Shown one piece after another: positions 4,334 through 57,537 of a stretch of 64,000 nucleotides of DNA (position 1 is its first letter; each line of letters opens with the position of its first letter). This stretch comes from Acidobacteriota bacterium (GTDB taxonomy: Bacteria; Acidobacteriota; Thermoanaerobaculia; Multivoradales; JAHEKO01), in NCBI GenBank assembly GCA_029263375.1, contig JAJCXP010000366.1, positions 2,402 to 66,401 of the forward strand. The letters run 5' to 3'. The position numbers and the translations under genes were made by a program. The notes below the pieces were generated by a model. It saw only the letters and a program-made list of their open reading frames with translations. It was not told the origin of the DNA and did no database searches.

Positions 4334-4384
4334 CATGGTGCCCAGGGGCGGATTTGAACCACCGACACCCTGATTTTCAGTCAG
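4334..4384. repeat. attL: 51-bp direct repeat identical to the 3' end of tRNA-Phe (distal island boundary)
   Basis: catggtgcccaggggcggatttgaaccaccgacaccctgattttcagtcag occurs identically at 4334-4384 and 57460-57510. The second copy is the 3' half of an intact tRNA. Confidence 0.8.
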
Positions 4385-39793: not shown

Positions 39794-41481
39794 GGCTGAC
39801 CTCCTTCACTCGAGGTGTCGGTAGGCGAGCCGTTACGACCGATCCGGTAACGGGGAACAACCGTCTGGGTGACGTAGGCGTCGGATAGGTCCTGGTAAAA
39901 GCCGACGTCCCGAAGACGCGCCATGAAGGCCTCCAGATTGGACCGTAGCGCGGCGCGATCCGCGATCGACGGAGCGTCGAAGCCGTCTCCATGGGGCAGC
40001 CGATCGATATGCAGGCCGTAGCGCTCGCGCAGGAAAGTCAACAGCGCGTCGATGCGAAGCTCACCGGTGTAGTAGCCCAGCGCTCCTCCCGGTCGCAGAA
40101 CGGCGATCTGAAGCAGCACCTCTAGGAGGCGGCTGTCGAGTACGAACCGGCGCGGTGCTTTCTTGACGCGGGGTTGAGCGATGACGGCACCGGCGCGGTT
40201 CTTCAGCAGAAGCGAGTCGATGCATTCGGTAATGTACTGGCGGTGGAACCGGCCACGCAGCGCGACGAGCATCTCGATGTAGGTCTCGAACTCGTCTAGA
40301 CCCATCTCGGTAACAGCCTTCAGCTCGGGGTCCAGGTCGGCGTCAGGCGCACCGCTGGAGTCTTGGATGAGCCCGTAAACCCGCTGGCCGAAGAACTTCT
40401 CGCGCTCGGCTTTGTGCATCGGCTCGAGGAGCTGGTGGACCTCGGCCACAGTGAAAGTCCCGCTAGGCGGGCTGGTCAGCTTGCCTCGACGCACGAGGTC
40501 GGTGGCGAACTCGTCGAGCTTCCGCGTCGCGAAATAGGCCTTTACGAAGGAGGGAACGCGGCGGTAGTGCATGTCAGCGCTCCGCTCGGCGAGCACCGCC
40601 ATGGTGGTGCCAGGCTGGCTCACGACGTCCAGCAGCAGCCCTACGCGATGCGGGCAGTCACCATGGGGATCGTCCGCGCTTTTCGAGTTCATGGGACAGG
40701 CGGCGCAGGTCGGGTCCTCACCCTTCCGCCGGACTAGCGCCGGCAGCAGCTTGAACAAGCGGAGGTGGTAGAGAGCCAAGTGAAAAGAGAACAGCACCTT
40801 CAGGTAATCGACCATCACCGATCGCGGCACGAAGCGCTGGTAGAAGAGGAGCCGCATCACGTCCTCGGCTAGCAGGTCCGCAGCCCCGACGCAGAGCGGC
40901 GGGTGGCTCTCGCGCCCCGCGCGGGTGTCCGCCGCGTCGTCCACCTGGTCGAGCAAGCGCAGCAGCGCCTGCGTCTCCACGTCGAGAATCGCCCCCTGGT
41001 CGGCACGCCCGGTGACTTTGTCGTGACCCTGGAAGAAAAAGTGGTCGAGGTGCTCGAGCGCCTTCTGCCCAGCCCCGCCGCGGGCGCCGGAGATCAGGTC
41101 ATAGAGGTGCTGCGCGGCGCCGTAGTCACGAGAGTGCTTTGGGTTGCGGAAGCGATAAGTGAATCCGTGCAACGGTCGTGGCGCGGCGATAGCCTGGTTG
41201 GCCTTGCCCCGATTGACCACGTCCATCAAATGAGTCTCGATCCAACGGAACAAGATGTCACGATGGTCGGCAAACCCGGTGAACCACTCGGGGTGCTCGA
41301 GGAACTCCTCCACGAAGGCCTCAGTCGACAGCTCAGCCTTGCGTCGTAGCCGACTCGGGAAGCCGTTGTGGGCCAAGCGCGCAAAAAAGGCCGTCAAGAC
41401 CCGGTCCATCTCGAGCTGCTTGAAGTCGAGGTGACTGATCTTGGGGAGACGAAACTCCCGGTCGCGCTTCGACAAAGCCAT
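39790..41481 (-). CDS. 563-aa conserved hypothetical protein (operon member)
   Basis: Translationally coupled on both sides. Cys cluster CAACPMNSKSADDPHGDCPH could bind metal. No family recognised. Confidence 0.5.
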   Translation of the reverse strand: MALSKRDREFRLPKISHLDFKQLEMDRVLTAFFARLAHNGFPSRLRRKAELSTEAFVEEFLEHPEWFTGFADHRDILFRWIETHLMDVVNRGKANQAIAAPRPLHGFTYRFRNPKHSRDYGAAQHLYDLISGARGGAGQKALEHLDHFFFQGHDKVTGRADQGAILDVETQALLRLLDQVDDAADTRAGRESHPPLCVGAADLLAEDVMRLLFYQRFVPRSVMVDYLKVLFSFHLALYHLRLFKLLPALVRRKGEDPTCAACPMNSKSADDPHGDCPHRVGLLLDVVSQPGTTMAVLAERSADMHYRRVPSFVKAYFATRKLDEFATDLVRRGKLTSPPSGTFTVAEVHQLLEPMHKAEREKFFGQRVYGLIQDSSGAPDADLDPELKAVTEMGLDEFETYIEMLVALRGRFHRQYITECIDSLLLKNRAGAVIAQPRVKKAPRRFVLDSRLLEVLLQIAVLRPGGALGYYTGELRIDALLTFLRERYGLHIDRLPHGDGFDAPSIADRAALRSNLEAFMARLRDVGFYQDLSDAYVTQTVVPRYRIGRNGSPTDTSSEGGQP

Positions 41482-44400
41482 CAGACCACGTCCGCCGGGA
41501 GCGCCACCGGCGCAGTATCGACAGGTCCGAGAGCCTTCATCTCCAGGCGGCCGTCGCCGTGGCGCTCGATACGGTAGAAATCGTGGCCGGTCGTCGTCAA
41601 TAGGACCTCCTGGTACGGCTCGGAGCCGAGCAGATTCTTGAAGACAGCGAGGCTCAGGTAATGCCCCTGCTCCTCCTCAATGCTCGGTCGGTAGCCCTCA
41701 CCCACCCGCTCCAGCATCTCAAAGACGTCGAGGTTGATCTGGATTTCTGCCTCGTTCCCGGCCTCACCCCGGTAGCGCAAGACCAGGCCGATAGGCATGT
41801 GCTCGATGAAGAGCGCGCTGCCGGCAGAGTCGCTGATAGCCAACGAGAATCGCTCGGGTGGGAACACGCGGTAGCTGCGCACCGTGCCGCGTTCTACCTC
41901 CCGCACACGCAGCGCAAGCCTTCCGTCGAGGCGGCCGGGGTCGCTCAACCCCTCTCCGCGGTTAATAGCCCGGAGGATCCGCGGAAGCACCTCATGCAAT
42001 GGTGCCTCGCCCCGCACCAGGCCCAACATCTGCTCGGCGGAGCGGTAGGGGAGCATCTGGCGCCAGCCGGAGTCCCGCCGCTCGAAGAAGGCGCGGCGCC
42101 GGACCATTTCCACATACCCCTGGTGCGCGCCAAGGCGGTGCTCGGTGGGTCGGCCTGAATAGTCACGGGGGAGGTCGTCGAACAGACGCTGGATCACCTC
42201 GCGGTCGTAGTCGGCGCGGCGGGCAAAGCGGAACAGACTTCGGTCGACGACGGGCGACACGAAGTCTATGGCCCGGTCGAACCGCGGATCGCTGACGTGG
42301 CCAACATCGACCTCCTGGAGTAACGCGAGCAACCGATCGGCGTTGGCCGTATCGCCGCCCATCCAGGAGTTGAAGTAAAAGCCCTGGACCACGGCCGCCC
42401 GGTCACCTGCCTTGTAGAGATCGTGGATGGCCTGGCAGTCGCGTGTTCCGGCCAGCATGTATGCGACGGCAGAGCGTAGATCCCTCATCGTGATGTGGAG
42501 TCGACCACGCAGATGCGTGATCGCGTAGAGGGTCTTGAGGCGCTCGATGACCTTGTGTCCCGCGGTCTCGTCCTGGAAGGTCCGCGCATTGTGGAGTACG
42601 TAGCAGCGCTCCTTCAGGTCACAGCTGTTGCAGGGCTCCCAAAAGGCCTCGTGCGTCAGCCGGCGAATGAGCCTCGCGAAGATCGACTCGTCGCCGCCCT
42701 TGGGATCCCCTTCGAAGAGCTCCAGACCACCGGTGGCGGTCACAACGCTGCGGAGGTTGAGGTTGACGACCGCCACGCGGTGCTCTGGCGTGCCGCTGAC
42801 CAACCCCACGCGAACTACTCGTTCGAGGAGCGGGAAGCGCTCGCGCTCCGTGGTGAGGAAGTCGACGAGGCGGCCTTCGTTGATGGCGATGAGGCGGACC
42901 TCGTCGTCTGGCCAGGCGTCCGCGTCCGCGCCGGCGAACGGCGCAAAGAAGTCCCCGAGAACCTCGTCGCTCTTCTGGTCGCCCTCGTCCTGGCTGCCGT
43001 CGTAGTTGGTCAAGTAGGTCCGGTCTTGAAGTCGAAACCGGCGGCCGTTGACTAGCGGCGGGTCAAAGGCCGCCTGGTTGCCATGAGCCCGCTGCTCCAG
43101 CCGCTGCAGGAATGCGGTCTTGCCGTCGCCGGCGTTGCCCGTGATCAACACTAGCCGGAACTCTCCGCGGAGAACCGCGGGCTCCAGCTGCCGGTCGAGC
43201 GCGGTCTCGACGTAGGTTCTCTCACCAAGCGCGTCCAGTCCGCGTGTGCCCACGTTGCTCTGTTGGCTCTGGCTATAGAGCGTCAACAGGCGGGCGACAA
43301 AGGGGTTGGTATTGGGGGGCGTCGAGCCACCGTCGTCGAGCCCGACGGTGGCCCAGGTCTCGGTGGTTTCGGATCTGGCCCGCCGGGCTTGCTGGACTCC
43401 GGCGAGCGATGCCTGCAACTCAGCGATGGACGCGAAGCGGTCGGCGCGCTTCGGCGCGATGGCCTTCACCGCGACTTCGGCGAGCTCGGGTGCCAAATCC
43501 GAGAGCCCGGAGATTGAGCGGGGGTCCAAGGGTGGCTCACCCGGCGGCGGCGTCGCGGCCAGCCAAGGGTATGCCCCCGTGATCGCTTCGTAGAGTGTTA
43601 CCCCGAGAGCGTAAAGGTCGCGATCGGCGAGGTCCGAAGGGCGCGGAACGGCGTTGAGATCGATGTCAGGCGGCAGGTAGCGCCGGGAACCGCCGCCGCG
43701 TCCATTGTCAGCGGCGGCGAGCACGGACACGTTGAAGTCGATGATCCTCACGCCACGGTCGGTCCAGATCAGGTTCCGCGGCTTGATGTCGCAGTGGTAT
43801 ACGCCGTGCCTGTGCAGGTGGGCGAGCCCCTCGGCTACCTGGCGGGCTAGCTCGAGCGCGTCCTCGGGGGCGAAGAGACCGCCCTCGACCATCTCGCCGA
43901 CATCCAGCCCCTCGATGTACTCGAAGACGATGAATGGCGGCCCGCCGCGCGGCAGCAGATCGGCGTCGATGACCTTCACGACGTTCGGGTGCTCGGGCAC
44001 ACGGAGCAACGTCCGGTACTCCTTCTTGAGGCGGTCGAGTGTCGAGTGGCGGTCGCGCAGGATGAGCTTCATCGCGCGCGAGACATCGCCGAGGGTATCG
44101 ATGACCTTGTAGACCACTCCGAATGAGCCGGGGCGGCCGAGGCGGCGATCCACCAGGTACTTGTGCGTCAGATGCGTACCCGGCGCGAGCTGGCTGTAGT
44201 CGACCTCGGGCCGAGGCTCGGTCTCTGGCTCGGGCGCTGTCGGCTCGTTCTCCGCGCTTGCCTCCGCAGCCAGCAGCGTCGCCAGCTCGGTAGCGGCCTT
44301 TCCCGCGGTCGGACGCCGGTCCGGGTCGAAGGCGCAAAGCCGCTGCAGCCAGTTGTCGAAAGCGCTGGCCTGACCGCTTTCCGATGCGTTTCCGTCCCCG

Positions 44401-45707
44401 CCCCGTGGGGTCGCCAGCTCCGGCCGATGCTCCGAGGGCTTCACCGAGAACACGCCGCCCTGATCAAAGACCTCGGTGGGACTGGCGAAAGGCTTATCGC
44501 CGGTGAAGAGCTCGTAGAGCACGAGCCCGGCGCTGAACACGTCAGAGGCCGCGCTCGCTTTCTGGGGCTCCCGGAATGCCTCGGGAGCCGTGTACAGGGG
44601 CTCCAGCTCGTCGACGATCTCGTGCGCGATGGTGCGGGAGCGATCGGTGCCTGCGCGGGCGAAGTCGAAGCCGATGAGCCGCACGCGCTCGTCAGTGCCG
44701 ATCAGAATCGTGCTCGGTGTCAGGTTGCGATGAACGACGTCGTGCTGATGCGCGTGAGCCAGGGCACCGAGCAGTTCCGACGCCACGCGCAGCTTCTGAT
44801 CAAGAGTGAGCGCAAGGTTTGCCTTGTCGATGTGCACGCGTAATGCCTGGCCGCGGACATCCTCGGTAACCAGAACGAAACGATCCTCGTGCTCGTCTAC
44901 AGGGGCGAAGTCCCGTACCCCCACGATAGCGGGATGCCCGGGCATCTGGTTTAGCGCGTTGTAGGCGTTAGCGATCCGGGCCCGCTGCTGGGCAATCTCA
45001 CCTGGGTCCGTGAGATACGGGTCTGCCTTGTAGACTCGCAGCAGGATGCGCCCCGAGCGCTTGCCGGCGAAGGTATTGAATCCGCGGTATTCCGTATACG
45101 CGTCGGTCCCACCGAGGCGCTCCTCGACCTCCCAGTTGCCGAAGCGCAGCGGCCCGGTGCGAGGCCGTGCCACACCCTGGAGCGCCTTGAGCACCATGCT
45201 GTGCAGGATGCTGATGTTCTTGGAGAAGCGACCGCCGATCCGGGCAGCGTTCTGGAATAGCCCGGGAGCCTTGAGGAGTGTGGTGACGCTCGGCGCGTCT
45301 CGACCGCTGGGATCCTGGAGCACGGCCCCGGGGGACGCGAGCAGCACCACCGCATCGACATAGACTCCTTCGAGGTCGCGACGCCCACGCTGGCTATCAG
45401 TGATGATTCCCTTGAGGCTACGCGCGTGGGCGCGGAGTTTGATGAGCGGCGAAGTGTAGGGCTGCCGTCCGTCCGGGTGCCACTTGGGCCCGTAGACGTC
45501 GATGAGCCCGCGCGTGCCCTTCACGTCGACCAGGTACACCGCGTGCGGGGCGATGACTGCCAGGTCCACCTCGAAGAGCTCTCCGCCGCGCACGATCTCG
45601 AAGTTGTGGACGAGCAAGTAGCCGTCCGGAAGGCGGTCCCGTAGGTGGCGAATGGCCCGGCGCTCGGCCTCGTTGACCGGCTCGCCGATGGGGATCACTC
45701 TTGCCAT
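41481..45707 (-). CDS. NERD-domain plus tandem protein-kinase (pseudokinase then kinase) plus P-loop NTPase protein, 1408 aa
   Basis: N-terminal NERD-like segment (VIPIGEPVNEAERRAIRHL...DLAVIAPHAVYLVDVKG). Kinase 1 has HRNLTPSTIL/GFDFAR/YTAPE, with the catalytic Asp replaced by Asn. Kinase 2 has GRPGSFGVVYKV, AMKLI, YHCDIKPRNL, DFN. Then a P-loop LVLITGNAGDGKTAFL. Confidence 0.75.
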   Translation of the reverse strand: MARVIPIGEPVNEAERRAIRHLRDRLPDGYLLVHNFEIVRGGELFEVDLAVIAPHAVYLVDVKGTRGLIDVYGPKWHPDGRQPYTSPLIKLRAHARSLKGIITDSQRGRRDLEGVYVDAVVLLASPGAVLQDPSGRDAPSVTTLLKAPGLFQNAARIGGRFSKNISILHSMVLKALQGVARPRTGPLRFGNWEVEERLGGTDAYTEYRGFNTFAGKRSGRILLRVYKADPYLTDPGEIAQQRARIANAYNALNQMPGHPAIVGVRDFAPVDEHEDRFVLVTEDVRGQALRVHIDKANLALTLDQKLRVASELLGALAHAHQHDVVHRNLTPSTILIGTDERVRLIGFDFARAGTDRSRTIAHEIVDELEPLYTAPEAFREPQKASAASDVFSAGLVLYELFTGDKPFASPTEVFDQGGVFSVKPSEHRPELATPRGGDGNASESGQASAFDNWLQRLCAFDPDRRPTAGKAATELATLLAAEASAENEPTAPEPETEPRPEVDYSQLAPGTHLTHKYLVDRRLGRPGSFGVVYKVIDTLGDVSRAMKLILRDRHSTLDRLKKEYRTLLRVPEHPNVVKVIDADLLPRGGPPFIVFEYIEGLDVGEMVEGGLFAPEDALELARQVAEGLAHLHRHGVYHCDIKPRNLIWTDRGVRIIDFNVSVLAAADNGRGGGSRRYLPPDIDLNAVPRPSDLADRDLYALGVTLYEAITGAYPWLAATPPPGEPPLDPRSISGLSDLAPELAEVAVKAIAPKRADRFASIAELQASLAGVQQARRARSETTETWATVGLDDGGSTPPNTNPFVARLLTLYSQSQQSNVGTRGLDALGERTYVETALDRQLEPAVLRGEFRLVLITGNAGDGKTAFLQRLEQRAHGNQAAFDPPLVNGRRFRLQDRTYLTNYDGSQDEGDQKSDEVLGDFFAPFAGADADAWPDDEVRLIAINEGRLVDFLTTERERFPLLERVVRVGLVSGTPEHRVAVVNLNLRSVVTATGGLELFEGDPKGGDESIFARLIRRLTHEAFWEPCNSCDLKERCYVLHNARTFQDETAGHKVIERLKTLYAITHLRGRLHITMRDLRSAVAYMLAGTRDCQAIHDLYKAGDRAAVVQGFYFNSWMGGDTANADRLLALLQEVDVGHVSDPRFDRAIDFVSPVVDRSLFRFARRADYDREVIQRLFDDLPRDYSGRPTEHRLGAHQGYVEMVRRRAFFERRDSGWRQMLPYRSAEQMLGLVRGEAPLHEVLPRILRAINRGEGLSDPGRLDGRLALRVREVERGTVRSYRVFPPERFSLAISDSAGSALFIEHMPIGLVLRYRGEAGNEAEIQINLDVFEMLERVGEGYRPSIEEEQGHYLSLAVFKNLLGSEPYQEVLLTTTGHDFYRIERHGDGRLEMKALGPVDTAPVALPADVV

Positions 45708-47110
45708 CAGGCGGCCTCCTCGATAGCGGCCTCGACGAGGGAGACTGCTTCGTCTTCGGCTGCCGTCGCACGAATCCGAGCCTCGAAGGCGTCTTGTACC
45801 CGTTTGTCCACGTTTTCCATGAAATCCTCAGGCGCCCGGACGATGGGGACGCTGGCCAGAAAGGAAGGCCAGAGCGCCGGAACCGACGCCCCGGTCATGG
45901 TCCTCGTGAGCAGCGGGTACCCGATGCTCGGTGCAGCCAAGTACGCGAAGAGATATCCTGCCGGGACTTGGTCTCCCTTCGGGACAATCCGAATCACATG
46001 ATCGGACGTCGCCGCACCATCCAGCGCCGCATCCACGAACTGGGGGCGGCCAATGATGCCACCTAGCTGCCCGGACCTCGCCAGAAGCACCCACCCCGTG
46101 TGGATGATGTACTTGTAGAGGTCCTTTGTCCGCCTCCGGGAGAGATGCTTGTCCGCCTTGCGGTTGAGCCGGAACAGCTCTCCGCTTGTGAAGAACGGGA
46201 TCCCGTACCCCGCATCTACGTAGATGTGCTTGAAAAGCGGGACATCGAAGACGTCGGCTATCAGGCCGAGTTCCCAGAAGCCGCTCGCATGCGTGGTCGC
46301 CCAGCGGTCGAGCATTGTCGCCACGGGGTTATGGAAGAAAGCATCAAAGCGACGGGAAGAACTCAGTGCGCCGACACTGACTCCATGCCCGAACCGATGG
46401 ATGTCTGACTCCCTAGGCGGAGGCGTTGGCGGACAGAGTCGGCGCTCAACCTCAGCGACGACTCCCGCCAGCCTCCTTGCTGCCGCGGTCCGCAGCCTTG
46501 CGGCTTCGCTCACCAGTTCGTGTGCTCGCCTTTCGGTTGTGTCCGCCAGTCGCGGCACCGGAAGGTCGTAGATTCTGGCGGGCGGCAGGAATGGAACAGT
46601 CCCGCCCGTCGTCCCCACAGCTACAATGGCGACTCCAAGACGCGACGCCAGGAATGCGAACAAGTAGCCGGGCCTAATCTTGCTTCGGTCAGGCACGACT
46701 TTCATCACGTTGTCCGACCCGACTTTCCCAGCCATGTCCGGTCGGACGAAGGCTACCCGTCCGACCGTGCCATACGAGGTAATGAGGGTCGTGCCTTCCT
46801 CCAACAACATGAACGGCATCGCCGTGGCTTGGCTTCTCGCGATGAGCGGAGCCGAGCTGATGTCTGCTGCCAACATCTCGGAACCAGAGAGCAGCGCGAC
46901 GCCGTGGTCAGGCGAGTCTGTATACCGCCGCGCGAACCGCGGTCCGTTGAAGATCCCCTCCTTGCCACCCCTAGTAAGGTGCGAGAGGCCTGTAGTCCGA
47001 AGCCGCCTCAGAGTCGCCCGCGCTTCGCGGGCTGCAGAAAGGTACGGGGCCGCAGACAAGCGATGACCTGACTCGAGTAGCCAGTCACTCGGCACAGACT
47101 TGTCCCTCAT
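45707..47110 (-). CDS. type I RM specificity subunit-like protein (HsdS-like, two TRDs), copy 2
   Basis: Conserved N-terminal, central (DLPVPRLADTTERRAHELV) and C-terminal (EDEAVSLVEAAIEEAA) regions, shared with copy 1, flanking two divergent TRDs. Start Met chosen by ATGA coupling at 47110. Confidence 0.6.
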   Translation of the reverse strand: MRDKSVPSDWLLESGHRLSAAPYLSAAREARATLRRLRTTGLSHLTRGGKEGIFNGPRFARRYTDSPDHGVALLSGSEMLAADISSAPLIARSQATAMPFMLLEEGTTLITSYGTVGRVAFVRPDMAGKVGSDNVMKVVPDRSKIRPGYLFAFLASRLGVAIVAVGTTGGTVPFLPPARIYDLPVPRLADTTERRAHELVSEAARLRTAAARRLAGVVAEVERRLCPPTPPPRESDIHRFGHGVSVGALSSSRRFDAFFHNPVATMLDRWATTHASGFWELGLIADVFDVPLFKHIYVDAGYGIPFFTSGELFRLNRKADKHLSRRRTKDLYKYIIHTGWVLLARSGQLGGIIGRPQFVDAALDGAATSDHVIRIVPKGDQVPAGYLFAYLAAPSIGYPLLTRTMTGASVPALWPSFLASVPIVRAPEDFMENVDKRVQDAFEARIRATAAEDEAVSLVEAAIEEAA

Positions 47111-47391
47111 GCCCCGTCCCGCGGGCACCACCGCCGTAGTGTGTCGAATAGCGAGGGACCCCTGCAGGGTGAGGTGGCGCTCAGCGCCTCCCAACCGCCA
47201 GTGCGCTGGGGCGCGGCCCCGAGAGCCGTGAGTGGCACGACTGCATCGACGGATACCCCCAGCCTTTCGCCGAGAGCGGTTTCGGAGTTAAGCATGAGGA
47301 GCTGGTCGCCCGACAGGTGATCCCGTAGGTGGCAAATGGTCCGTCGCTCGGCCTCATTGACCGGCTTGCCGATGGGGATCACCGTCGCCAT
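47107..47391 (-). pseudogene. duplicated 5' fragment of the NERD-kinase gene (first ~70 bp, then divergent)
   Basis: MATVIPIGKPVNEAERR matches kinase N-terminus MARVIPIGEPVNEAERR. The DNA at 47320-47394 nearly duplicates 45640-45710, including the junction TGATGGC. Confidence 0.5.
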
Positions 47392-48791
47392 CAGGCGGCT
47401 TCCTCGATGGCGCTCTCAACGAGGTCGACAGCTTCGTCCTCGAGAGCGACAGCCCTCTGCCTGTCGACGTACGCGCTGACTACTTCTTCGTGCACAGACC
47501 TTTGCATGTGTCGAGACGGGTAGGGCACCGGTATTTGCGCACGGTAAACGTTGTGATGGTCCTGCTGCTTGGTGCCCACTGAGATCGAGCGGAGCATCCG
47601 AAAGGCGCTTTCCGAGCGCATGAACGCGAACAAGGCTCCCCGCGGCATTATCCTCTCGTCGGCGACGATGCGAAGGATGTCCTCCGAGTAGGCGAGGCCT
47701 ACGGCCGACCCCCAAGCGAACTCAGCGCGGCAGTAGAGCTCAGATTCGCCGAGGGTGCCTCGGGCCGCCACAAGCGTAGTTCCAGCATCGACAAGAATGT
47801 CGTCCGCGACCGACGTTCTCGCAATCCACCGTCCACGAGGGCGAAGCCTAAACAGCTGCTTCTGCCCTATGAGCTCGTATGCGTACTCAGGCTCGGCGTC
47901 AATCCGCCTGTATCGACCTCCGCGCTTGAGAGTTCCTGGGACACAGATCTCGCCGAGCGGCTTCCAGGGCCCACTCCGGATGCGATCGCAAAGGCGCCTG
48001 AACCTCGGGTTGAAGTTGAGCGCGCGCAAGGACTCCACTTTTGGAAAGGTCGCCTGGAACCCGACGTCAGGGCCCTCTGACTGCCACTCGCGTGCAGTGA
48101 TGTCCTGGAGGCCAACCGAGGCGAAGAACTGAGCCGTCGTATCGGAAAGCGCACGCTGAGCTCCTGTCAGGGTAGTGCCGGCTTCGACTACGAGCGCATG
48201 CGCTCTCTCCTCCATGGCTGCGTCGAGCCGTGGGACCGGAATATCTGCGAGTTGCTCTGGCTCTACATGCTTGATGTTTCCACCATAGATCTGCTTCCGG
48301 ATCCATGCGTGCCCGAAACGACTGGCGAGAAAGGCATGGACGTAGCCGGGAGGCACTCTTGCCGAATCTGGGCGAACCCGAATGAGGTCGTGCGTTCCAC
48401 AGAGCCGATCAAAGTCTCCGCGAGCCCAGATTGCGCGGCCTAGGTTCATTCCCGAGCAGGTCACCAGGATCATCCCTGGTTGGAGCATGAGGAGGTCCAA
48501 GACGCTGCCCAACCGGAACGACAAGAAGGCCGATGGCCGGACATCCGCCTGAAGCAAAGCATTGCCAGAAACGTAGGGGCGACCATACTCCGGGCCTGCG
48601 GCGTAGATCCTCTTGAAGATCGGCCCCCTAAAGACTCCGCCGGGCGGGCAAAGGTCTCCAAGCGGGGTCGCCTTTCGGCCCAATTCTCGGAGGCGCGCTA
48701 CCGCTTGCTGGTCCTCGGACAGGTGGAAGCCACCCGTGAGCCGAGTCCCTTCGGACATGATGTCCGACGCCGAGACCGGGCCGACCCTCAT
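47391..48791 (-). CDS. type I RM specificity subunit-like protein (HsdS-like, two TRDs), copy 1
   Basis: DIPVPRLDAAMEERAHALV. C-terminus EDEAVDLVESAIEEAA. TRDs unrelated to copy 2. Start at 48791 overlaps the upstream stop (ATGA). Confidence 0.6.
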   Translation of the reverse strand: MRVGPVSASDIMSEGTRLTGGFHLSEDQQAVARLRELGRKATPLGDLCPPGGVFRGPIFKRIYAAGPEYGRPYVSGNALLQADVRPSAFLSFRLGSVLDLLMLQPGMILVTCSGMNLGRAIWARGDFDRLCGTHDLIRVRPDSARVPPGYVHAFLASRFGHAWIRKQIYGGNIKHVEPEQLADIPVPRLDAAMEERAHALVVEAGTTLTGAQRALSDTTAQFFASVGLQDITAREWQSEGPDVGFQATFPKVESLRALNFNPRFRRLCDRIRSGPWKPLGEICVPGTLKRGGRYRRIDAEPEYAYELIGQKQLFRLRPRGRWIARTSVADDILVDAGTTLVAARGTLGESELYCRAEFAWGSAVGLAYSEDILRIVADERIMPRGALFAFMRSESAFRMLRSISVGTKQQDHHNVYRAQIPVPYPSRHMQRSVHEEVVSAYVDRQRAVALEDEAVDLVESAIEEAA

Positions 48792-49420
48792 GCGCCAGCC
48801 TCCTGCGGGAACCAACGCCTTATCGAGCCCGCAAGCAGTTCGAAGGATGGATCTGTACAGCCGTGGACCGATATCGAGTCCGCGATTCGTGTGTAGACTA
48901 CTTTCGTCTTAAGCGACCTCTGTCTAACCAGCGCCTGGATCGTCTCCTTAGGCTCAGTCGGTTTGGGGGCGTCGGCTGGCCAAGCGCCCGTTCCTTCTAG
49001 GTGCCGCCGAAGGGAACCACCTGAGAAGTTCAGGGCTCGCTCCACATTTGGGTTGTCCTGCCAGAGCCAGATCTCGAGCTCCGGGTCGATCACGACCACT
49101 TCGCAGCGATCCCCCCACCCAGTCTGGCTCAACCGGGCGACGATTTCGTCGTGCACCTCATGAGCAGGGAGCTCGCCGCCATACTGTTGGTCGAGCACGA
49201 CAAGGGCGCGTCTGTGTGTGTTGAGGTAGGGCCGCAGTAGCTCGTGGGCGCTTTTGTGCACGCCACCGTCGGTGTGCATCGGATCGTGAAAAATATCTTC
49301 TTGGGGCCAAACGTCGAACCGTTGGCACTGCAGCGTCAGGTCCCACCTCTCCCGCCCAAAGAACGAGCGAAGTACTGCCACCATGGTGCTGTCAGCGCCA
49401 AGGATGACAAGCTCCCTCAT
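48788..49420 (-). CDS. small partner protein of the AAA ATPase (family unassigned; DUF4276/RloB-type partners are candidates)
   Basis: 210 aa. Coupled to the ATPase gene by a 4-nt overlap. N-terminus MRELVILGADST. Confidence 0.45.
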   Translation of the reverse strand: MRELVILGADSTMVAVLRSFFGRERWDLTLQCQRFDVWPQEDIFHDPMHTDGGVHKSAHELLRPYLNTHRRALVVLDQQYGGELPAHEVHDEIVARLSQTGWGDRCEVVVIDPELEIWLWQDNPNVERALNFSGGSLRRHLEGTGAWPADAPKPTEPKETIQALVRQRSLKTKVVYTRIADSISVHGCTDPSFELLAGSIRRWFPQEAGA

Positions 49421-50697
49421 CCTAAGATACCTGCCGCGAACAGCGTTCCGAGGTCGAGCGACTCCTTCCAGCCCACTAGGCGGGGATGCTGTGGCCCAGG
49501 CACGACCGTCGCCGCTCCATTGCGGCCGAGCCTGGCCGCCAGTAGCTGGTCAAGCTCGACGTTGGCCACAACGACAGGCGAGTGGGATGAGACGAGGACT
49601 TGACTCTCCTGCATCGAGGAAAGCGCCTCGAGTACCGTCTCGATTGCTTGAGGGTGGATTCCGTTCTCCGGCTCTTCCACCAGAAGGAGTCGAGGGGGCC
49701 GTTGGAGGTAGGTCAGCAGCGTGAGCGCGAGCACGCGCAGGGTACCGTCGGACAGGCCGGACGACGTAACGACGTGCCCGCCGTGGTAGGTCACACGGAA
49801 GTACGCGTGGTGGTCCTCCTCCCGCTCGACGGCCTCGATATCCGTCACCTGAGGTAGCGCTATGGCAACGTGCTCCTTCCAGGCAGCGAACTGATCGGGC
49901 GTCTCTTGCTGCAGCGACATGGCGAGCCACGGCAGGTTTGTCCCATCGGGCCTCACACGATCCGTCAAGCCCGGTGGGCTAGCCTTTCGCAGTTCACTCC
50001 ACACTGGGTCGAAGAGCACTGCATCCTCGGTCAGACTGTCGACAAGCCATCGGGCCGCCGGGAAATCCTCACGTGCCTCGAAACGGACCTTTGGGAGCGC
50101 CAGCAGGTCGGGTTCGAGTGCCGTGTTGCGGGCCTTGGCTCTAGGCTTGGATTCGACGCGGAGCTCGATCTCGCTGCCGTACTCGCGCCGAATGGCGAAG
50201 CGCCACTGGGGCCGTGGGCTAATCTCGCCGTGCAACCGTGCTTGGCCTCGCGGCGGTGAGTGCTGGTCGGAGAATGTAAAGAGGTACTCGTTCTGTACCT
50301 GCAGCGCCCTCTTGTCGAAGACTTGGAGGCGGAGTTCGTACCGGATGTACCTCGGCCAGCGCTGCTCGTTGCTCCGGACAGCATCAGTCGTTCCTTCGAG
50401 GAGGTCCCGTACGACACGCTCTGGGAGCCGTGCCTCGACGGCGAAGATGAACCAGTCTGCCCGTTCCTTGTGTACGAGTTCCACTAGCGAGCCCGCACGT
50501 GAACCACGCGGCTGTGTGCTCCTAAGGAACGCTGTCGAGATGTTGTCCGCCTCGATGAGATCTCCGAGCAAGATCGGAATGTCTAACAGCGTTGTCTTCC
50601 CGGCTCCGTTGGCCCCGATGATTACCCCGAAGTGGCCTAGATCCACGTCGAGCTGGTCGAAGCAGCGATAGCCGGTGGCCTCGATGCGCGTGATCAT
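49417..50697 (-). CDS. AAA/ABC-type (SMC-like) ATPase of the AAA_15/AAA_21 kind
   Basis: Walker A GANGAGKTTLL. Signature-like LSDGTLRVLAL. Walker B LLLVEEPENGIHP. Confidence 0.75.
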   Translation of the reverse strand: MITRIEATGYRCFDQLDVDLGHFGVIIGANGAGKTTLLDIPILLGDLIEADNISTAFLRSTQPRGSRAGSLVELVHKERADWFIFAVEARLPERVVRDLLEGTTDAVRSNEQRWPRYIRYELRLQVFDKRALQVQNEYLFTFSDQHSPPRGQARLHGEISPRPQWRFAIRREYGSEIELRVESKPRAKARNTALEPDLLALPKVRFEAREDFPAARWLVDSLTEDAVLFDPVWSELRKASPPGLTDRVRPDGTNLPWLAMSLQQETPDQFAAWKEHVAIALPQVTDIEAVEREEDHHAYFRVTYHGGHVVTSSGLSDGTLRVLALTLLTYLQRPPRLLLVEEPENGIHPQAIETVLEALSSMQESQVLVSSHSPVVVANVELDQLLAARLGRNGAATVVPGPQHPRLVGWKESLDLGTLFAAGILG

Positions 50698-52733
50698 GTT
50701 CCTGGCTCCCTATTCTCCTCGCGGAACTCGCGGTAGGCCTGGGCGATGCGCGGCAGGTCGTCGTCGACGATCTTCTGCTTCCGACGAAGCTCCCGCTCCA
50801 CGAAGTTCCCATTGACCCGAATCCGCTCGATGACCTTGACCTCCTCGATCCGCTCCTCGCCATCAGGGCTGCGCTTGTACAGCGTGTTGCCGCGCCGATC
50901 GAAGCCGACTCTCTCGGCAACTGCCATGAAGACCGGGTAGTCGCTAGCCGCACCCAGATCCTCGGCCTGGATTTCCTCCTGGGTCTTCTTCTTGAGGAAG
51001 AGCAAGCTCGTCAGAATGTTGACGTTGGCCTCGACGATAAACACTTCGACGGGTAGGTCAACGCTTGCGAGCACCCAGCAGTGCCGCAGGATCCACCAGC
51101 GAATGTACTCATCACCTGGGTTGCCGAGAATGCCGTCAGGCAGCACAATGCCCGTGCGCCCACCCGGCCGCAGCCAGTCGATACAGCGCTCGATAAATAG
51201 AACCTCGGGCGAGACGCTGCCGTGGTGCTTGCCGCTGTTGACGAACCCACCGCCTTCAACAGCCGCCCACCGGTTGGCCAACTCGAAGTGCTGCAGGATG
51301 TTGGGGTCTGTGACCGGGATCTCCGACCCGAAGGGCGGGTTTGTCATCACGACATCCATGGTGCCGAGACCGGCCTGCTCTCCCGCGGCTTCGACGCCCC
51401 CCAAGTGCCCGGAGGGAAATTCCAGCGAGTTCATATTATAGACGTGTCCCTGAGCGTTCGAAGCCATCACCACGTTCATCTGGGCTGCGCGAACCAGGAA
51501 AGGATCGAAGTCGGCTCCAAACAGCTTGGAGTTGGCCCATGCTGCAAGGCGGTCGCGAATTGAGAGGAACTCGTCCGTTGACTCTGCACCAGGCTGGACA
51601 GCCGCTTCCTGATGAAAGCGGCGATCCATGTGGCTGAGCACCGATACGAGGAAGCCACCCGTACCGCAAGCGGGATCGAGGACGCGTTCGCTCTCCTGCG
51701 GATCCAGCATATCGACCATCAGATCGACAGCTCCGCGGGGTGTGAAGTACTGCCCCCTGTCGCCTCGGAGGTTGTTCTTGACAATTTCTTGATACGCCGC
51801 CCCCTTGGCGTCGATGGCCGTGCGGCCGAAGTCGTACTTCGCAAGCTCCGCGACCATGAAGGCAAGGGCTCGGTCCGAGAGGGTGATCTCCTCGTTCCCG
51901 CGAAAGATGGTGTCGTAGTGTCGCTTGACTTCCTCGAAGAGCGGCTCGATCCTCGCTCGGATGGCCTGACGCCCCTCCGGATCGAACTGCTCAGTGGCGC
52001 CCGCCCAGAAGCGAGGCTCATCGTCCCTGCTGCGCTTCTCGTCGTGCATCTTCGTAAAGATCAGGTACAGAAACTGCCAGAACGCCGCGTCCTTTGGCAT
52101 GCCCTCGTTGCCGTGGATGAAGTTGTGGCAGCGCCGGAACGCGGTTCGTAGCATCTCCGGATCGGCCCTTCGCAAGCGAGCGTGCGAGACAACATCGCGT
52201 GTGCCGATGGACTCGTCGGCCATCGGCCAATCCCCAATAGGCTTGAACTTCACATCGAAGCGGCTGACCTCTTTGTCAAAGAAGAAGAAGTCGAGGCCGT
52301 TGGTCCACAGCCCGTAGCGACAGGCGGGCGCGTCGGTCATCGCGGCGTGGAGCAGGCTGAATTCCATCTTGGCCTGGTCGTGGTCTCGCATCTTGTAGGC
52401 GCCCTTCTTGGTGCGAGGTGGTTCCTTCTGGCAAACCACTAGCCGCCGGACGTTCTCGACCTCGTGGGGCTGGTCCGACTCGAAGATCGCCAGGTCGATC
52501 TTTCTCATTCGCCCGTCCACTCGCATGCGGAAGTCGGGTGCCATGTCCTCGAGCGAGATGCCGTACTCGTGGAAGAACGCACGCGCGATGCGCTGGCGCA
52601 CCTTTTCCTTTAGGGTGTCCTTGACGGGTTTGCCGGTGATGTAGTCGACGACCTGTCCCTCCTCGATAGACATGGCGTCGGTGGACTCGCCGTTTTCGCT
52701 GGTGTCGCCAGCGCGGTCCTGTGGGTCAGTCAT
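50694..52733 (-). CDS. N6-adenine DNA methyltransferase, HsdM-like, with N-terminal HSDR_N-like (restriction-endonuclease-fold) extension
   Basis: Motif I LDPACGTGGFL. Motif IV NPPFG. N-terminal KIDLAIFE...RRLVVCQKE resembles a PD-(D/E)xK domain. ATG at 52733 is preceded by AAGGAGG and overlaps the end of the upstream HTH gene. Confidence 0.8.
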   Translation of the reverse strand: MTDPQDRAGDTSENGESTDAMSIEEGQVVDYITGKPVKDTLKEKVRQRIARAFFHEYGISLEDMAPDFRMRVDGRMRKIDLAIFESDQPHEVENVRRLVVCQKEPPRTKKGAYKMRDHDQAKMEFSLLHAAMTDAPACRYGLWTNGLDFFFFDKEVSRFDVKFKPIGDWPMADESIGTRDVVSHARLRRADPEMLRTAFRRCHNFIHGNEGMPKDAAFWQFLYLIFTKMHDEKRSRDDEPRFWAGATEQFDPEGRQAIRARIEPLFEEVKRHYDTIFRGNEEITLSDRALAFMVAELAKYDFGRTAIDAKGAAYQEIVKNNLRGDRGQYFTPRGAVDLMVDMLDPQESERVLDPACGTGGFLVSVLSHMDRRFHQEAAVQPGAESTDEFLSIRDRLAAWANSKLFGADFDPFLVRAAQMNVVMASNAQGHVYNMNSLEFPSGHLGGVEAAGEQAGLGTMDVVMTNPPFGSEIPVTDPNILQHFELANRWAAVEGGGFVNSGKHHGSVSPEVLFIERCIDWLRPGGRTGIVLPDGILGNPGDEYIRWWILRHCWVLASVDLPVEVFIVEANVNILTSLLFLKKKTQEEIQAEDLGAASDYPVFMAVAERVGFDRRGNTLYKRSPDGEERIEEVKVIERIRVNGNFVERELRRKQKIVDDDLPRIAQAYREFREENREPGT

Positions 52734-52965
52734 CCAGCCCCTCCTTCGGTGTCGCGTCGCTGCTCGACTCGGCGCCGCCTTCGCGAACCCACGCGTCGAC
52801 GTCATCCTTCTTGAACTTCCAGAAGCGCCCAACCTTGTAACCGGGCATTCCCTTCCGGGTAACCCAAACGTACACAGTGTCCTTGCTCACGCCGAGGTAC
52901 TCGGCGATCTGGTCTACGGACATCCACCGGTCGTCCATCGGTCGTGCGCTCCCGTGCTGAGGCAT
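52726..52965 (-). CDS. HTH_17 (excisionase/MerR-like) DNA-binding protein. Either Xis of the island or a controller of the downstream operon
   Basis: MSVDQIAEYLGVSKDTVYVWVTRKGMPGYKVGRFWKFKKDDVDAW is an excisionase-family HTH. Translationally coupled to the MTase. Confidence 0.7.
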   Translation of the reverse strand: MPQHGSARPMDDRWMSVDQIAEYLGVSKDTVYVWVTRKGMPGYKVGRFWKFKKDDVDAWVREGGAESSSDATPKEGLDD

Positions 52966-53955: not shown

Positions 53956-56900
53956 GTGCTTGTTGACACCCGCACCGTCGAGCTGACCCGCGGCTTCTAC
54001 GAGTGGGAGCTGCGAGGTCGGGGTTGGGCGCGCTACCCGCGACACGTGGCGCTCGAGCCGGCGTTCCAGCCCTTCCTTGGTCACTCGCCGCCGACTACGC
54101 AGCGAGTCGATGACGCGAGGCGAGAGACCTGGCTCTCGTCGCTTGTGAGCCGGTTGCCAGGTCGACAGCAGACCGTCTCCTCTGAGCTGCATGAGATCAA
54201 GGCGCCTGCTCCAGAGCCGCGACCGCCTGAACTCGCAGAGCTGTCCGAGTTTGTGATCGCCCTCCCGAAGGACGCTCGTGTGCCCAGGGCTGCCGTCCTC
54301 GCATGGCTTCGTGCTCTGTCCACCATCTCGGGGCCTGTCTCCTTCGAGCTACTCGGAGGCACAGAGCGGGTCGAGGTGCGACTCGCTGTTGGCAATCCCG
54401 ATGTCAGTCAGGTCATTGGGCAGCTTCAAGCGGTACTACCCTCGGCCATCGTCCTCGAGGCTCCCGAGCGGCTCGAAGAACGATGGTTCGAGGTCATTGG
54501 CGACCACTTCGCGGCGATCGAGTTTGGCCTCGCGAGCGAGTTCATGATCCCCTTGGCGCGTTTTGGATCCGGGGATGAGCCGCTACTGCCATCGATCGCG
54601 GCGCTCGCCAACGTCGGCGCTGACGAGCTCGGCCTCGTCCAGGTGCTTTTCGAGGAGACTCGCGAGTCCTGGGAGCGCAGCCTCCTGCGGGCCGTGGTCA
54701 CGCCAAGCGGCAAGCCCTTCTTCGCCGATGCACCCGAGATCACCGCGGCGGCGAGGGACAAGGTGGCCACTCCGCTGTTCGCAGTTGCGGTGCGGGTCGC
54801 GGCAGTAGCCCAGACCACAGATAGAACCTGGGAGGTCCTGCAGCAGCTGGCCGGGGGGCTCTCACACTTCGGCAATCCCCAGGCGAACGAGCTGATGCCG
54901 TTGCCGACCGGCGATCTCGAATTGCTGGAGAGCGATCTAATCGACCGAACGACGCATCGCTCCGGAATGCTGCTCTCAACCGAGGAACTCATCTCTCTTG
55001 TCCAGTTCCCCGGAACAGGCGTTCAGGTGCCTGAGCTCTGGCGAGCGAGCGAGAAGAGCAAGGCGGCCCCCGCCGAGGTGATCGGCCAGGGCTGCTTTCT
55101 CGGGAAGAACGAGCACCAAAGTCAGGCTTCCGACGTCCGGCTCCCCGTCGATGCCAAGACGAAGCACGTGCATGTGGTCGGCGGCTCGGGAACAGGCAAA
55201 TCGACGCTTCTTGTGCGCATGATCCTCGAGGACATCGAGGCGGGTCACGGCGTCGGCGTCCTCGATCCGCACGGCGATCTGATCGACGAAGTAGCGTCCC
55301 GAATACCCGAGGACCGCTTCACCGATGTTGTCTTCTTCGATCCGAGCGAAGAGGAGACCGCGATTGGCTGGAACATCCTGGGCGCTCAGTCGGAGACCGA
55401 GAAGGATCTCCTAGCATCGGATCTGGTGGGAGTCTTCCGACGGCTCTCGACCTCCTGGGGCGACCAGATGACGGCGGTGCTCGCGAACGCCATTCTCGTC
55501 TTCTTGGAATCGGACCGGGGCGGGATCTCCTGGACCTCAGGCGCTTCCTCGTTGATGCCGAGTTCCGAAAGGAGATCCTGCAGACCGTCGACGACGAATA
55601 CGTTGGATCGTTCTGGGAAACGGAGTTTCCGCTTCTCATCGGTCGCAAGCCCCAGGCCCCAATCCTGACGCGGCTCGACATGTTCCTCCGCTCCAAGCTG
55701 ATCCGGCGGGTCGTCACCGTACGGAATCCGAAGCTCGACTTCGCAAGAGTGACCGACAGCGGGCACATCTTCCTCGGCAAGCTGGCGACGGGCGCCATCG
55801 GCGAGGAGAATGCGGCGTTGCTGGGGTCCCTTCTCGTCTCGAAGTTTCACCAGGTCACACTTGCGCGCGAAGCGCAGACCGTCGAGCAGCGGCGGCCGTT
55901 CTTCCTCTACATCGACGAGTTCCATCACGTGGCGACGCCCTCGATGGCATCGCTGTTCTCAGGCATGCGGAAGTACCGACTCGGTCTGACGGTGGCACAC
56001 CAGGACCTCTACCAGCTTCACAAGTCGGTCCCGGAGGTCGAGCGTTCGCTGTTGGCGAACGCGTACACGCGGATCTGTTTCCGCGTCGGAGAGGAGGACG
56101 CACGAGGTCTGGCGAAGGGCTTCAGCTTCTTCGAGGCCGAGGACTTGATGGGTCTTGGGCTCGGAGAAGCTATCTGCCGGGTCGGCGGGCGCGACGCCGA
56201 CTTCAATCTCCGGACGGAGAAGCTGCCGCCGGTTGATCGTGAAGAGGCGCAGGCCCGGGTAGCGATTCTCCGAAGCCTCTCAGGACAGAGGTGGCGAGGA
56301 AGCGACGATGGAGACTCTGAACCTCCGCCGCGCACGAAGAAAGCGCCGAGGAAGACGGCCGAGACTGCTAGTCGCGAGCCCAAGGAGGAGGCCACTTCCC
56401 TGCCGCCTGACAAGCAAGAGTCGGTCGACAAGCCTCAGGTGGAACCGGCTCCGCGGCCGCAATTGGACAAGGAGGTGCTCGACTACCTCGAGCTTGTCGC
56501 AACGGCGCCTTTCCTTTCCGTCCGCGAACGCAACGACCACCTCAGCCTGAGCGCGTGGAAGGGTGACCAGGTCAAGAAGACTCTTCTCGACGGGGATCTG
56601 GTGCGCGAGGTGGCGGTCAATCCAGGCGGCCGAGGAGCGCGGTTCAAGCTTCTCGAGTTCACAGCGGCTGGGCGAGGAGCCCTTGCGGACTATGGGATCA
56701 AATCTCCTTCCGGGCACGGGCGGGGTGGAATCGCCCATCAGTGGTGGGTGAACACCATCGCCGCATGGCTCCAGGAGCAAGGCTTCTCCCCCGTGATCGA
56801 GGATGAGTCCTCGGGCGCCAGAGTAGACCTTTCCTTCTCGGTCAAGCGCAAGAGGGTAGCCGTCGAGGTCGAGATGGCCGAAGGCCACGCCCTTGAGAAC

Positions 56901-57395
56901 GTCCGGAAGGACCTGGAAGCGGGCTACGACCTTGTCGTCAGTCTTCTGGATGACTCCACTTCCTTAGGGCGCATCGAGAAGGCTCTTGCCTCTGAGTCGG
57001 GAGACCTACCTTTGAGCGTCCGGGTGGGGAGGGTTCAGGATTACACGGAGCTCCTCGCCCCGCCCCTCATCCCCCACCCTCCTCCCTTACGAGCGCCGAA
57101 CCAAAACAAAGAACCAAGAGCGCAACGCCAGCGACGGCCGCGGACGGCACACGGCGAATCGGCCGGCAAGCGGCAGGCGGATGTCCCCCCAGAGCCAGGC
57201 GCCCTGTCGACGCCCTGGGCCGCGGAGTACCTGGGGCTGAGCCCGGCGACCTTGGAGGCGCTGCGTTCGCGTGGCGGCGGCCCCGCTTTTGCCAAGCTCG
57301 GCAGGCGCGTCGTCTATCGCCGGGAAGACCTCGACGCATGGCTCGCTGAGCGCCGCCGCAAGTCAACGAGTGACGATGGGTCGCCTTCGACTTGA
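53956..57395 (+). pseudogene. large (~1146 codon) T4CP-like FtsK/TraD-family ATPase with N-terminal extension, frameshifted near 55527. C-terminal tail carries an AlpA-like HTH
   Basis: Paralog of 22218-23528 (HVHVVGGSGTGKSTLL, LDPHGDL, FFLYIDEFHHV, LTVAHQDLYQL). Reading continues in another frame after ESDRGG (-1 relative shift). C-terminus LSPATLEALRSRGGGPAFAKLGRRVVYRREDLDAWL is an AlpA/Xis-like HTH. Confidence 0.5.
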
Positions 57396-57459: not shown

Positions 57460-57510
57460 CATGGTGCCCAGGGGCGGATTTGAACCACCGACACCCTGAT
57501 TTTCAGTCAG
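57460..57510. repeat. attR: 51-bp direct repeat, overlapping the 3' end of tRNA-Phe
   Basis: Identical to 4334-4384. Confidence 0.8.
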
Positions 57511-57537
57511 GTGCTCTACCAACTGAGCTACCTGGGC
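57462..57537 (-). tRNA. tRNA-Phe: tRNA-Phe (anticodon GAA)
   Basis: The reverse complement reads GCCCAGGTAGCTCAGTTGGTAGAGCACCTGACTGAAAATCAGGGTGTCGGTGGTTCAAATCCGCCCCTGGGCACCA. It forms a 7-bp acceptor stem and a T-arm GGTGG/CCGCC, carries anticodon GAA, and has an encoded CCA. Confidence 0.9.

Follow-up and report, generated by a model that had tools for sequence, protein, structure and literature searches.

Two heterologous mad5 genes in tandem within a MADS operon of an Acidobacteriota bacterium: a candidate for dual specificity served by one methyltransferase

Introduction

A stretch of 64,000 nucleotides (nt) from an Acidobacteriota bacterium (GenBank assembly GCA_029263375.1, contig JAJCXP010000366.1, positions 2,402 to 66,401 of the forward strand; hereafter the window) contains a complete operon of the MADS defence system, in which the gene of the specificity (S) subunit, mad5, is present as two intact copies, mad5-A and mad5-B. 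From sequence comparison and structure prediction we consider it probable that two heterologous mad5 alleles were joined here by recombination, that both are expressed and form a stable pair, and that two motifs would be methylated and policed via one methyltransferase, Mad2. In an initial annotation of the window this region had been described as hsdS-like genes next to a kinase gene. The assignment as S-subunit and kinase genes holds, although the genes are not generic members of these classes but mad5 and mad6 of a complete MADS operon.

MADS was first described in 2023 in Pseudomonas aeruginosa SMC4386 (Maestri et al., bioRxiv 10.1101/2023.03.30.534895). In this host both strands of the motif TCAGN4TCC become methylated by the system, which is directed against the motif in unmethylated form; epigenetic escape is the known route by which phages get past it in P. 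aeruginosa, and deletion of mad5 alone appears to be lethal there. Recognition of a motif of the TCAGN4TCC type is the behaviour expected of an S subunit with two target-recognition domains (TRDs) (PMC3874165).

Results

The operon lies on the minus strand, as do all of its features quoted below, and has the order mad1-mad2-mad3-mad4-mad5-A-scar-mad5-B-mad6-mad7-mad8, where the scar is a short open reading frame (ORF). The first S gene, mad5-A (47391-48791; ATG at 48791), codes for 466 amino acids, scores 465 bits against the NCBIfam MAD5 model (cut-off 400) and matches positions 1-468 of the family hidden Markov model (HMM). The second, mad5-B (45707-47110; ATG at 47110), codes for 467 amino acids and scores 403.9 bits against the same cut-off. 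The family HMM spans both proteins end to end (592 and 586 bits), and every invariant column of a 63-sequence MAD5 alignment is retained in Mad5-A as well as in Mad5-B. The GC content at third codon positions (GC3) amounts to 0.707 for mad5-A and 0.718 for mad5-B, with normal coding asymmetry in both. Judged by these features, both mad5 copies look functional.

Over their full length the two proteins share 30% identity (BLASTP, E 9e-49), which is unevenly distributed: TRD1 is 33%, the central helix region 37%, TRD2 22% and the C-terminal helix 51% identical, rising to 88% over the last 16 residues. The C-termini, LEDEAVDLVESAIEEAA and AEDEAVSLVEAAIEEAA, both fit the pattern EDEAV.LVE.AIEEAA that had originally been noted for the two S genes. 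The TRDs, in turn, are not unrelated, as had been stated; identities of 33% and 22% point to a homologous TRD fold with probably different specificities. An AlphaFold2 model of Mad5-B (predicted local distance difference test 92.5, predicted template modelling score 0.90) comprises two TRDs of globular shape with a long helix after either of them (residues 190-225 and 428-466), and thus fits the architecture of type I-like S subunits, in which the long helices that accompany the two TRDs pair into a coiled coil. With this model Foldseek retrieves full-length matches to PacII-S, BsaXI-S and HsdS with a probability of 1.0 and E values of 1e-10 to 5e-13, the S-subunit matches including 1YDX, 1YF2, 3OKG and EcoKI, with representatives from M. 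genitalium, M. jannaschii and T. tengcongensis. The corresponding template modelling scores are low (0.24-0.42), as would be expected if the relative orientation of the TRDs differs. A search of the PDB by sequence with Mad5 yields just a weak single-TRD match, to Esub1.

MADS loci for comparison were collected by scanning species-representative genomes and metagenomes with a Mad6 N-terminal alignment, which gave 112 loci, six more being added by exact look-ups. Mad5-A is 71% identical to a protein designated P0002, encoded on a 2.4-kb contig, and 70% identical to the single Mad5 of locus L006, the closest overall relative, whereas Mad5-B shows 63-64% identity to P0121, which is the only Mad5 encoded in locus L001. 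Both of these loci have the plain order mad4-mad5-mad6 with one mad5, and for each of the two Mad5 proteins many full-length relatives annotated as MAD5 exist in other phyla. Since A and B are far closer to these foreign proteins than to one another, they represent heterologous alleles. The surrounding operon is itself composite. For Mad1, Mad2, Mad6, Mad7 and Mad8 the nearest relatives are those of L006 (75-80%), whereas Mad3 and Mad4 have theirs in loci L005 and L004 (63% and 68% identity to L005 vs 53% and 31% to L006), and since the nearest relative thus changes along the gene order, the operon is a mosaic around the mad5 slot. This change seems to set in close to the 3' end of mad2, and two deeply different types of Mad4 exist.

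The junctions of the two copies are marked by repeats. A direct repeat of 182 nt at 78% identity in the repeat search (blastn: 175 nt, 78.9%, E 2e-38) connects 47261-47442, comprising the 3' end of mad5-A and a remnant mad6 head, with 45577-45758, comprising the 3' end of mad5-B and the 5' end of intact mad6. It covers ~50 nt at the 3' end of each mad5 and continues into mad6 for the initial ~124 nt, which are contiguous, so that a kinase 5' end follows each S gene (MATVIPIGKP at 47391 after mad5-A, MARVIPIGEP at 45707 after mad5-B). The initial annotation had assumed such kinase gene copies of ~70 bp, contingent on significant nucleotide identity between them; the identity is present, and the repeat is longer than anticipated. 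A second, short blastn match pairs 47206-47250 with 45315-45359 within mad6 (78%, E 1e-4) at an offset of exactly 207 nt. From this offset we infer that the remnant once extended to at least nt ~390 of mad6 and subsequently lost 69 codons in frame, a deletion that removes the NERD core from it.

The remnant is part of a 94-codon ORF (47107-47391), which matches positions 1-43 of the NCBIfam MAD6 model (E 2e-7, far below the cut-off) and ends in SLFDTLRRWCPRDGA. This tail fits the C-terminal motif that Mad4 has across MADS loci, LR.WFP.E, and its stop is overlapped by the ATG of mad5-B. A mad6 head and a mad4-type tail being fused in frame, the ORF is best described as a scar, and the join of a mad6 head to a mad4 tail is the junction expected from tandem placement of a unit consisting of mad4 tail, mad5 and mad6 head. 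In agreement with this, the ~35-45 nt ahead of each mad5 start are homologous (alignment score 33, compared to a mean of 17 and a maximum of 30 for shuffled sequences; 0 of 500 shuffles reach 33). The upstream copy of this short second repeat (48785-48822; local alignment score 33) contains the 3' tail of mad4 and the start of mad5-A, and the downstream copy (47104-47138) contains the mad4-type tail remnant and the start of mad5-B, and can be aligned in register with the tails of mad4 from L006 and L001 (31 and 30 of 48 nt identical).

Both mad5 starts overlap the preceding stop as ATGA, as had been noted before, and both mad5 stops overlap the next ATG as TGATG; no junction lacks an overlap of the ATGA or TGATG kind. 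With TGATG after mad5-A and ATGA before mad5-B retained by the scar, the chain of overlapping starts and stops is unbroken from mad4 through mad6, which would allow translational coupling along it. The ATGA overlap of mad4 and mad5 is common to 91 of 105 MADS loci. No terminator-like site was found in the scar or at the gene junctions; the two sites detected in all, compared to 2.4 expected from shuffled sequences, are both inside mad5-B, and a search for internal promoters separating the mad5 copies gave one weak promoter-like match, inside mad5-A.

Across phyla (L001-L118) both ends of the mad5 slot are conserved in nucleotide sequence, in contrast to the strong variation of the mad5 gene between them. 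On the mad4 side the conserved tail closes with TGGTTCCC..GGAGG..ATGA, and at the other side the mad5 end and the first ~124 nt of mad6 show 70-85% nucleotide identity across loci.

How the two alleles came together can be outlined as follows. Two MADS operons would have recombined, either unequally or in a homology-facilitated illegitimate manner, so that the alleles came to lie in tandem and a mad6 head (up to about nt 390-460) was fused to the final ~40-60 nt of a mad4 gene. From this head 69 codons would later have been lost in frame, leaving the 94-codon scar ORF. The incoming MADS fragment may have entered by homologous recombination on one side and by an illegitimate join on the other. 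Such a single event would account for the mosaic, for the mad6 head on copy A and for the mad4-type tail on copy B. An unequal crossover followed by allele replacement would fit equally well. The mad6-head remnant, 77% identical to the resident mad6 and 77% to the mad6 of L006, is uninformative as to which copy is native and which imported, and composition does not separate the copies either, their GC3 being the same.

Among the 94 informative loci of the survey (those with at least 3.3 kb upstream of mad6, the window counted and some loci being redundant), two full mad5 genes are found only in the window and in locus L013, the Acidobacteriota metagenome-assembled genome (MAG) AMX-MBFR-36 (BTUO01000001.1), and an extra mad6 head is likewise confined to these two. 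No extra mad6-head fragments were found in the single-mad5 loci of the survey. Exact-protein look-ups for single-copy or variant forms of the window locus returned one Logan contig, identical to the window, and no match for Mad5-A and Mad4, and a search for tandem mad5 genes on plasmids gave just three distant single-copy matches. In the metagenomic MADS locus L046 (375-1764) the single mad5 is split into two overlapping ORFs covering HMM positions 1-107 and 120-468, which probably reflects a frameshift or sequencing error rather than a second copy.

The layout of L013 is identical to that of the window: mad4 is followed by a mad5 (6956-8359), an 85-codon mad6-head ORF (8359-8616) with TGATG and ATGA overlaps, a second mad5 (8613-10001) and an intact mad6. 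In contrast to the window copies, which differ in both TRDs, the L013 copies differ only in TRD2 (33% identity). They share TRD1 (96% at the protein level), with 587 nt at 95% identity (6947-7533 vs 8604-9190) and an exact run of 323 nt, and hence offer a real substrate for homologous recombination, unlike the window. The TRDs of the window and L013 are only 19-46% identical and not orthologous, and the scars differ past approximately the first 25 codons, from which it follows that the two events were independent. The arrangement is thus a rare, recurrent variant of a known MADS system. In the window as well as in L013 the reading frame of the scar ORF continues uninterrupted from the ATG of mad6 up to the ATGA at which the following mad5 begins; the probability of this occurring in both by chance is roughly estimated at 1-2%, which hints at selection for translational coupling.

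The remaining genes establish the identity of the operon. PADLOC calls mad2, mad3, mad4, mad5, mad5, mad6, mad7 and mad8 in this order, and all of MAD2-MAD8, both S genes included, pass the NCBIfam equivalog cut-offs. The mad1-like gene (52726-52965) codes for a helix-turn-helix regulator of 79 amino acids (Pfam HTH_17, E 1.2e-17) with 80% identity to the ORF upstream of mad2 in L006. It is followed by mad2 (50694-52832 as the listed ORF), the N6-adenine DNA methyltransferase (1034 bits vs cut-off 720; Pfam N6_Mtase and HSDR_N_2), by mad3 (49417-50697), an AAA_21/ABC-type ATPase (527.7 vs 420), and by mad4 (48788-49420; 210 amino acids; 229 vs 160), the stop of which overlaps the mad5-A start. 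Downstream of the S genes lie the intact mad6 (41481-45707; 1408 amino acids; 792 vs 460), which combines a NERD with two kinase domains (Pfam NERD and two Pkinase matches), mad7 (39790-41481; 563 amino acids; 678 vs 410; PADLOC E 5e-165) and mad8 (34208-39793; 1861 amino acids; 228 vs 175). The three genes that are mandatory in the MacSyFinder model of the MADS authors, mad6, mad7 and mad8 (bioRxiv 10.1101/2023.03.30.534895), are therefore all present, and mad1-mad5 are co-oriented in canonical order, as seen from the equivalog scores, the HTH_17 ORF and the overlapping stops and starts. The longest mad2 ORF, starting with TTG at 52832, overlaps mad1 by ~107 nt, and residue 56 is the first that the MAD2 model matches; translation probably starts at an internal ATG instead, near 52733 or 52673.

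The whole operon is carried by a ~53-kb element that has inserted at tRNA-Phe. The element is delimited by two identical copies of a 51-nt direct repeat (4334-4384 and 57460-57510), which corresponds to the 3' part of the tRNA-Phe gene (57462-57537, minus strand), and a tyrosine integrase gene (4522-5760, plus strand) adjoins the left repeat copy. In P. aeruginosa, MADS sits in the pheT hotspot. Among its other genes are TraD/TrwB-like ORFs and a CHC2 primase-like ORF. Three plus-strand ORFs (53956-55668, 55680-57395 and 22218-23528) have domains of the TrwB/TraD/TraG coupling-protein type or HerA-like domains, and the first two, which are adjacent, look like a split coupling-protein-like gene or a two-gene module, the second member ending in HTH_17. 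Just beyond the island boundary, an ORF at 1250-2386 (plus strand) shows a weak SIR2_2 match (E 7.5e-7, with no individually significant stretch) and may be another defence-related gene.

Discussion

Two co-expressed specificities that share one methyltransferase are the likeliest explanation of the tandem. Both Mad5 proteins would be made, each assembling with the single Mad2, for which they would compete, and each guiding N6-methyladenine (m6A) methylation to a different bipartite motif. DNA unmethylated at either motif would then be the target of the defence components, and with more target sites per phage genome an escape by accidental methylation would become harder. The system would hence operate in a manner analogous to a type I methyltransferase with two alternative S subunits. 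Of the two functions originally proposed for the locus, two specificities or TRD exchange, the former is the most plausible, both copies being intact and passing the MAD5 cut-off, whereas the latter lacks a substrate here.

Compared to the P. aeruginosa system, the window contains the same eight gene families in the same order, with the specificity subunit between mad4 and the kinase gene mad6, and a bipartite m6A motif is expected here as well; it differs in that two mad5 genes and a scar ORF of mad6 head and mad4 tail take the place of one mad5. The MADS preprint mentions multiple hits to one gene type in some operons as possible duplications; a search of its text turned up no description of mad5 tandems, their scars or a heterologous origin (bioRxiv 10.1101/2023.03.30.534895). 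Precedents for the proposed mode of action come from type I systems, in which added S subunits, such as lactococcal plasmid-borne hsdS, use the single M (and R) subunit to provide more than one specificity per cell (PMC3874165; O'Sullivan et al. 2000, cited in PMC7383803). Those extra hsdS genes usually reside on plasmids or at separate loci, whereas the second S gene of the window lies in tandem inside the operon and is accompanied by a scar. Likewise, the effectors are Mad3, Mad4 and Mad6-8 instead of the HsdR of type I systems. The operon is not a classical type I restriction-modification system, as no HsdR-type protein is encoded in it and Mad2 scores 24 against the hsdM model TIGR00497 (cut-off 243). 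With BREX type 2/Pgl, the system shares the N-terminal NERD and kinase architecture of Mad6, which is common to PglW (PADLOC PglW, E 6e-64); the NCBIfam PglW score of Mad6, however, is 194 vs a cut-off of 990, a PglX-, PglY- and PglZ-type set is missing from the window operon, and BREX, unlike MADS, has no separate S subunit.

Several points weigh against the proposed stable pair with two specificities. The margin by which Mad5-B passes the MAD5 cut-off is narrow (403.9 vs 400), and one of the copies may not be expressed or may fail to associate with Mad2. That just 2 of 94 loci have the layout could mean that it is transient instead of selected. Within the scar, the mad6/mad4 join is ambiguous, lying anywhere between ORF residues ~62 and ~78, and given the equal distances of the mad6-head remnant and the conservation of the mad6 5' end and mad4 tail at 70-85% nucleotide identity across phyla, the models for the origin of the pair are indistinguishable.

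The main rival explanation takes up the question of transience, namely that the array represents a transitional stage of allele replacement with one functional copy, which resolves by deletion between the direct repeats of mad5 3' end and mad6 5' end or of the mad4 tails. Apart from the low frequency of the layout, such a scenario would be in line with the position of the repeats, which flank either copy so that deletion could remove either one, with the apparent decay of the mad6 head (in-frame 69-codon deletion, 77% identity) and with the pervasive shuffling of TRDs and alleles in the MAD5 family. Moreover, as the loss of mad5 is apparently lethal in P. aeruginosa (bioRxiv 10.1101/2023.03.30.534895), a two-copy stage would be a safe way of changing specificity. 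We nevertheless regard this explanation as unlikely. Both copies have remained intact while the scar diverged to 77-79% and lost 207 nt, which argues for long co-retention under purifying selection. In addition, recombination would find little to work on in the repeats, where exact identity extends over 15 nt at most, and the scar ORF is still open and in frame, with the chain of starts and stops kept.

A tentative idea, which we rate as rather unlikely, is that the mad5 slot constitutes an exchangeable cassette between two junctions conserved across phyla, the tail of mad4 (...TGGTTCCC..GGAGG..ATGA) on one side and, on the other, the end of mad5 with the head of mad6 (...GAGGAGGCCGCCTGATGGC..GTGATCCCCATCGGCGAGCC...). 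The arrays of the window and L013 could then be intermediates of a duplicate-replace-resolve cycle, in which selection keeps the scar ORF open so that the second mad5 and mad6-8 stay translationally coupled.

The initial annotation had also put forward a specificity switch in which the conserved frames recombine by homology, creating hybrid TRD combinations within a population without an invertase. At the level of the family, exchange of this kind has much in its favour. The identities of TRD1 and TRD2 are uncorrelated among MAD5 proteins (r = 0.085 for 24,976 pairs), and in 376 pairs one TRD is at least 70% identical while the other is below 40%, which shows independent shuffling of TRD1 and TRD2 across the MAD5 family, as in type I S subunits. 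New type I specificities arise by TRD recombination, as in the StySB/StySP hybrids (PMC3874165; PMC7383803), crossing-over in the conserved central helix region having yielded hybrid specificities (PMC3874165), and the L013 copies with their common TRD1 and long exact repeat are suitably built for it. For the window pair, in contrast, switching is improbable. The N-terminal and central frames are conserved at the protein level, as had been claimed, but not at the nucleotide level: codon-aligned nucleotide identity of mad5-A and mad5-B is 44%, the central PVPRL block reaches 53% with a longest exact run of 8 nt and the N-terminal block 46% with 7 nt, and the longest exact match between the two cassettes, located in the mad6 head, is the 15-nt run mentioned above. 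Self-blastn on both strands revealed no inverted repeats beyond palindromes of at most 22 nt. Across 45000-49500, Tandem Repeats Finder detected no tandem repeats, and this segment holds no homopolymer of 7 nt or more and, as its sole simple-sequence repeats (SSRs), two 4-unit dinucleotide runs. No recombinase is encoded near the mad5 pair, the only integrase being that at the end of the island, ~40 kb away. Furthermore, the copies are co-oriented, for which reason a crossover would delete and not invert or reversibly switch them. Taken together, the low identity, the 15-nt longest match and the lack of inverted repeats, SSRs and a local recombinase mean that switching by homologous recombination is not supported here, and, judging from its sequence, the window pair as it now stands does not constitute a specificity switch.

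The same observations set the locus apart from inverting hsdS loci (SpnD39III/ivr, tvr, Mycoplasma and the 'epigenetic invertons'; PMC7672463, PMC6265443), with which it shares more than one S gene per locus, one methyltransferase and modular TRDs. Switching in those loci depends on inverted repeats and hsdS copies that are partial and silent, in most cases together with a site-specific recombinase (PMC7672463, PMC6265443), whereas both S genes of the window are complete, directly oriented and predicted to be co-transcribed, and neither inverted repeats with an adjacent recombinase nor an HsdR are associated with them. Nor is there a long simple-sequence tract in or between the TRDs, as would characterize SSR-driven phase-variable hsdS genes.

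That the pair arose by tandem duplication of one mad5 in situ, with TRDs diverging in place, we likewise hold to be quite unlikely. The junction does have the classic topology of a tandem duplication, in which the end of the unit (mad6 head) is joined head-to-tail to its start (mad4 tail), and the GC3 values of the copies are indistinguishable. Paralogs that diverged in place should, however, be mutual closest relatives, whereas the copies are only 30% identical and each has full-length relatives with 64-71% identity in other lineages, so that by content neither gene is a recent copy of its neighbour. In addition, the mad4-type tail before copy B is slightly nearer to the tails of L001 and L006 than to the resident mad4 tail, and has their length. 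The cassette duplication proposed initially is therefore correct as regards a cassette-type repeat with kinase 5' ends, but it was probably not a simple duplication. Duplication followed by allelic replacement of one copy is possible and is included in our preferred explanation of two joined heterologous alleles.

Finally, an assembly artefact, i.e. a chimeric join of the MADS loci of two strains in the metagenome assembly, which the heterologous nature of the alleles might suggest, can practically be dismissed, as an independently built Logan contig (run SRR15505514; L119) is 100% identical over the junction region 44357-48420, where it spans the 3' part of copy A, the scar, copy B with the same gene call of 467 amino acids and the mad6 head, so that the arrangement is not an artefact of one assembler, and as the parts of the scar are fused coherently and in frame, both coupling junctions being retained and no abrupt join being seen, and the same architecture exists on a 1.2-Mb contig of an unrelated MAG (L013).

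Conclusions

The window and the independent L013 locus represent concrete candidates for dual specificity, for which two bipartite m6A motifs served by one methyltransferase are predicted. They bear on how MADS specificity evolves and on whether one system polices more than one motif, the scar being a record of how a second gene arrived when conserved gene junctions recombined. In practical terms the value of such loci is modest and lies in the prediction of methylomes and transformation barriers as well as in the annotation of MADS loci with an extra mad5 or short mad6-head ORFs. If the mad5 slot were indeed an exchangeable cassette, specificity could be changed or added without passing through a mad5-less state, which is apparently lethal in P. 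aeruginosa. Provided that both mad5 copies are active, target sites would be denser, and epigenetic escape should as a result be less frequent.

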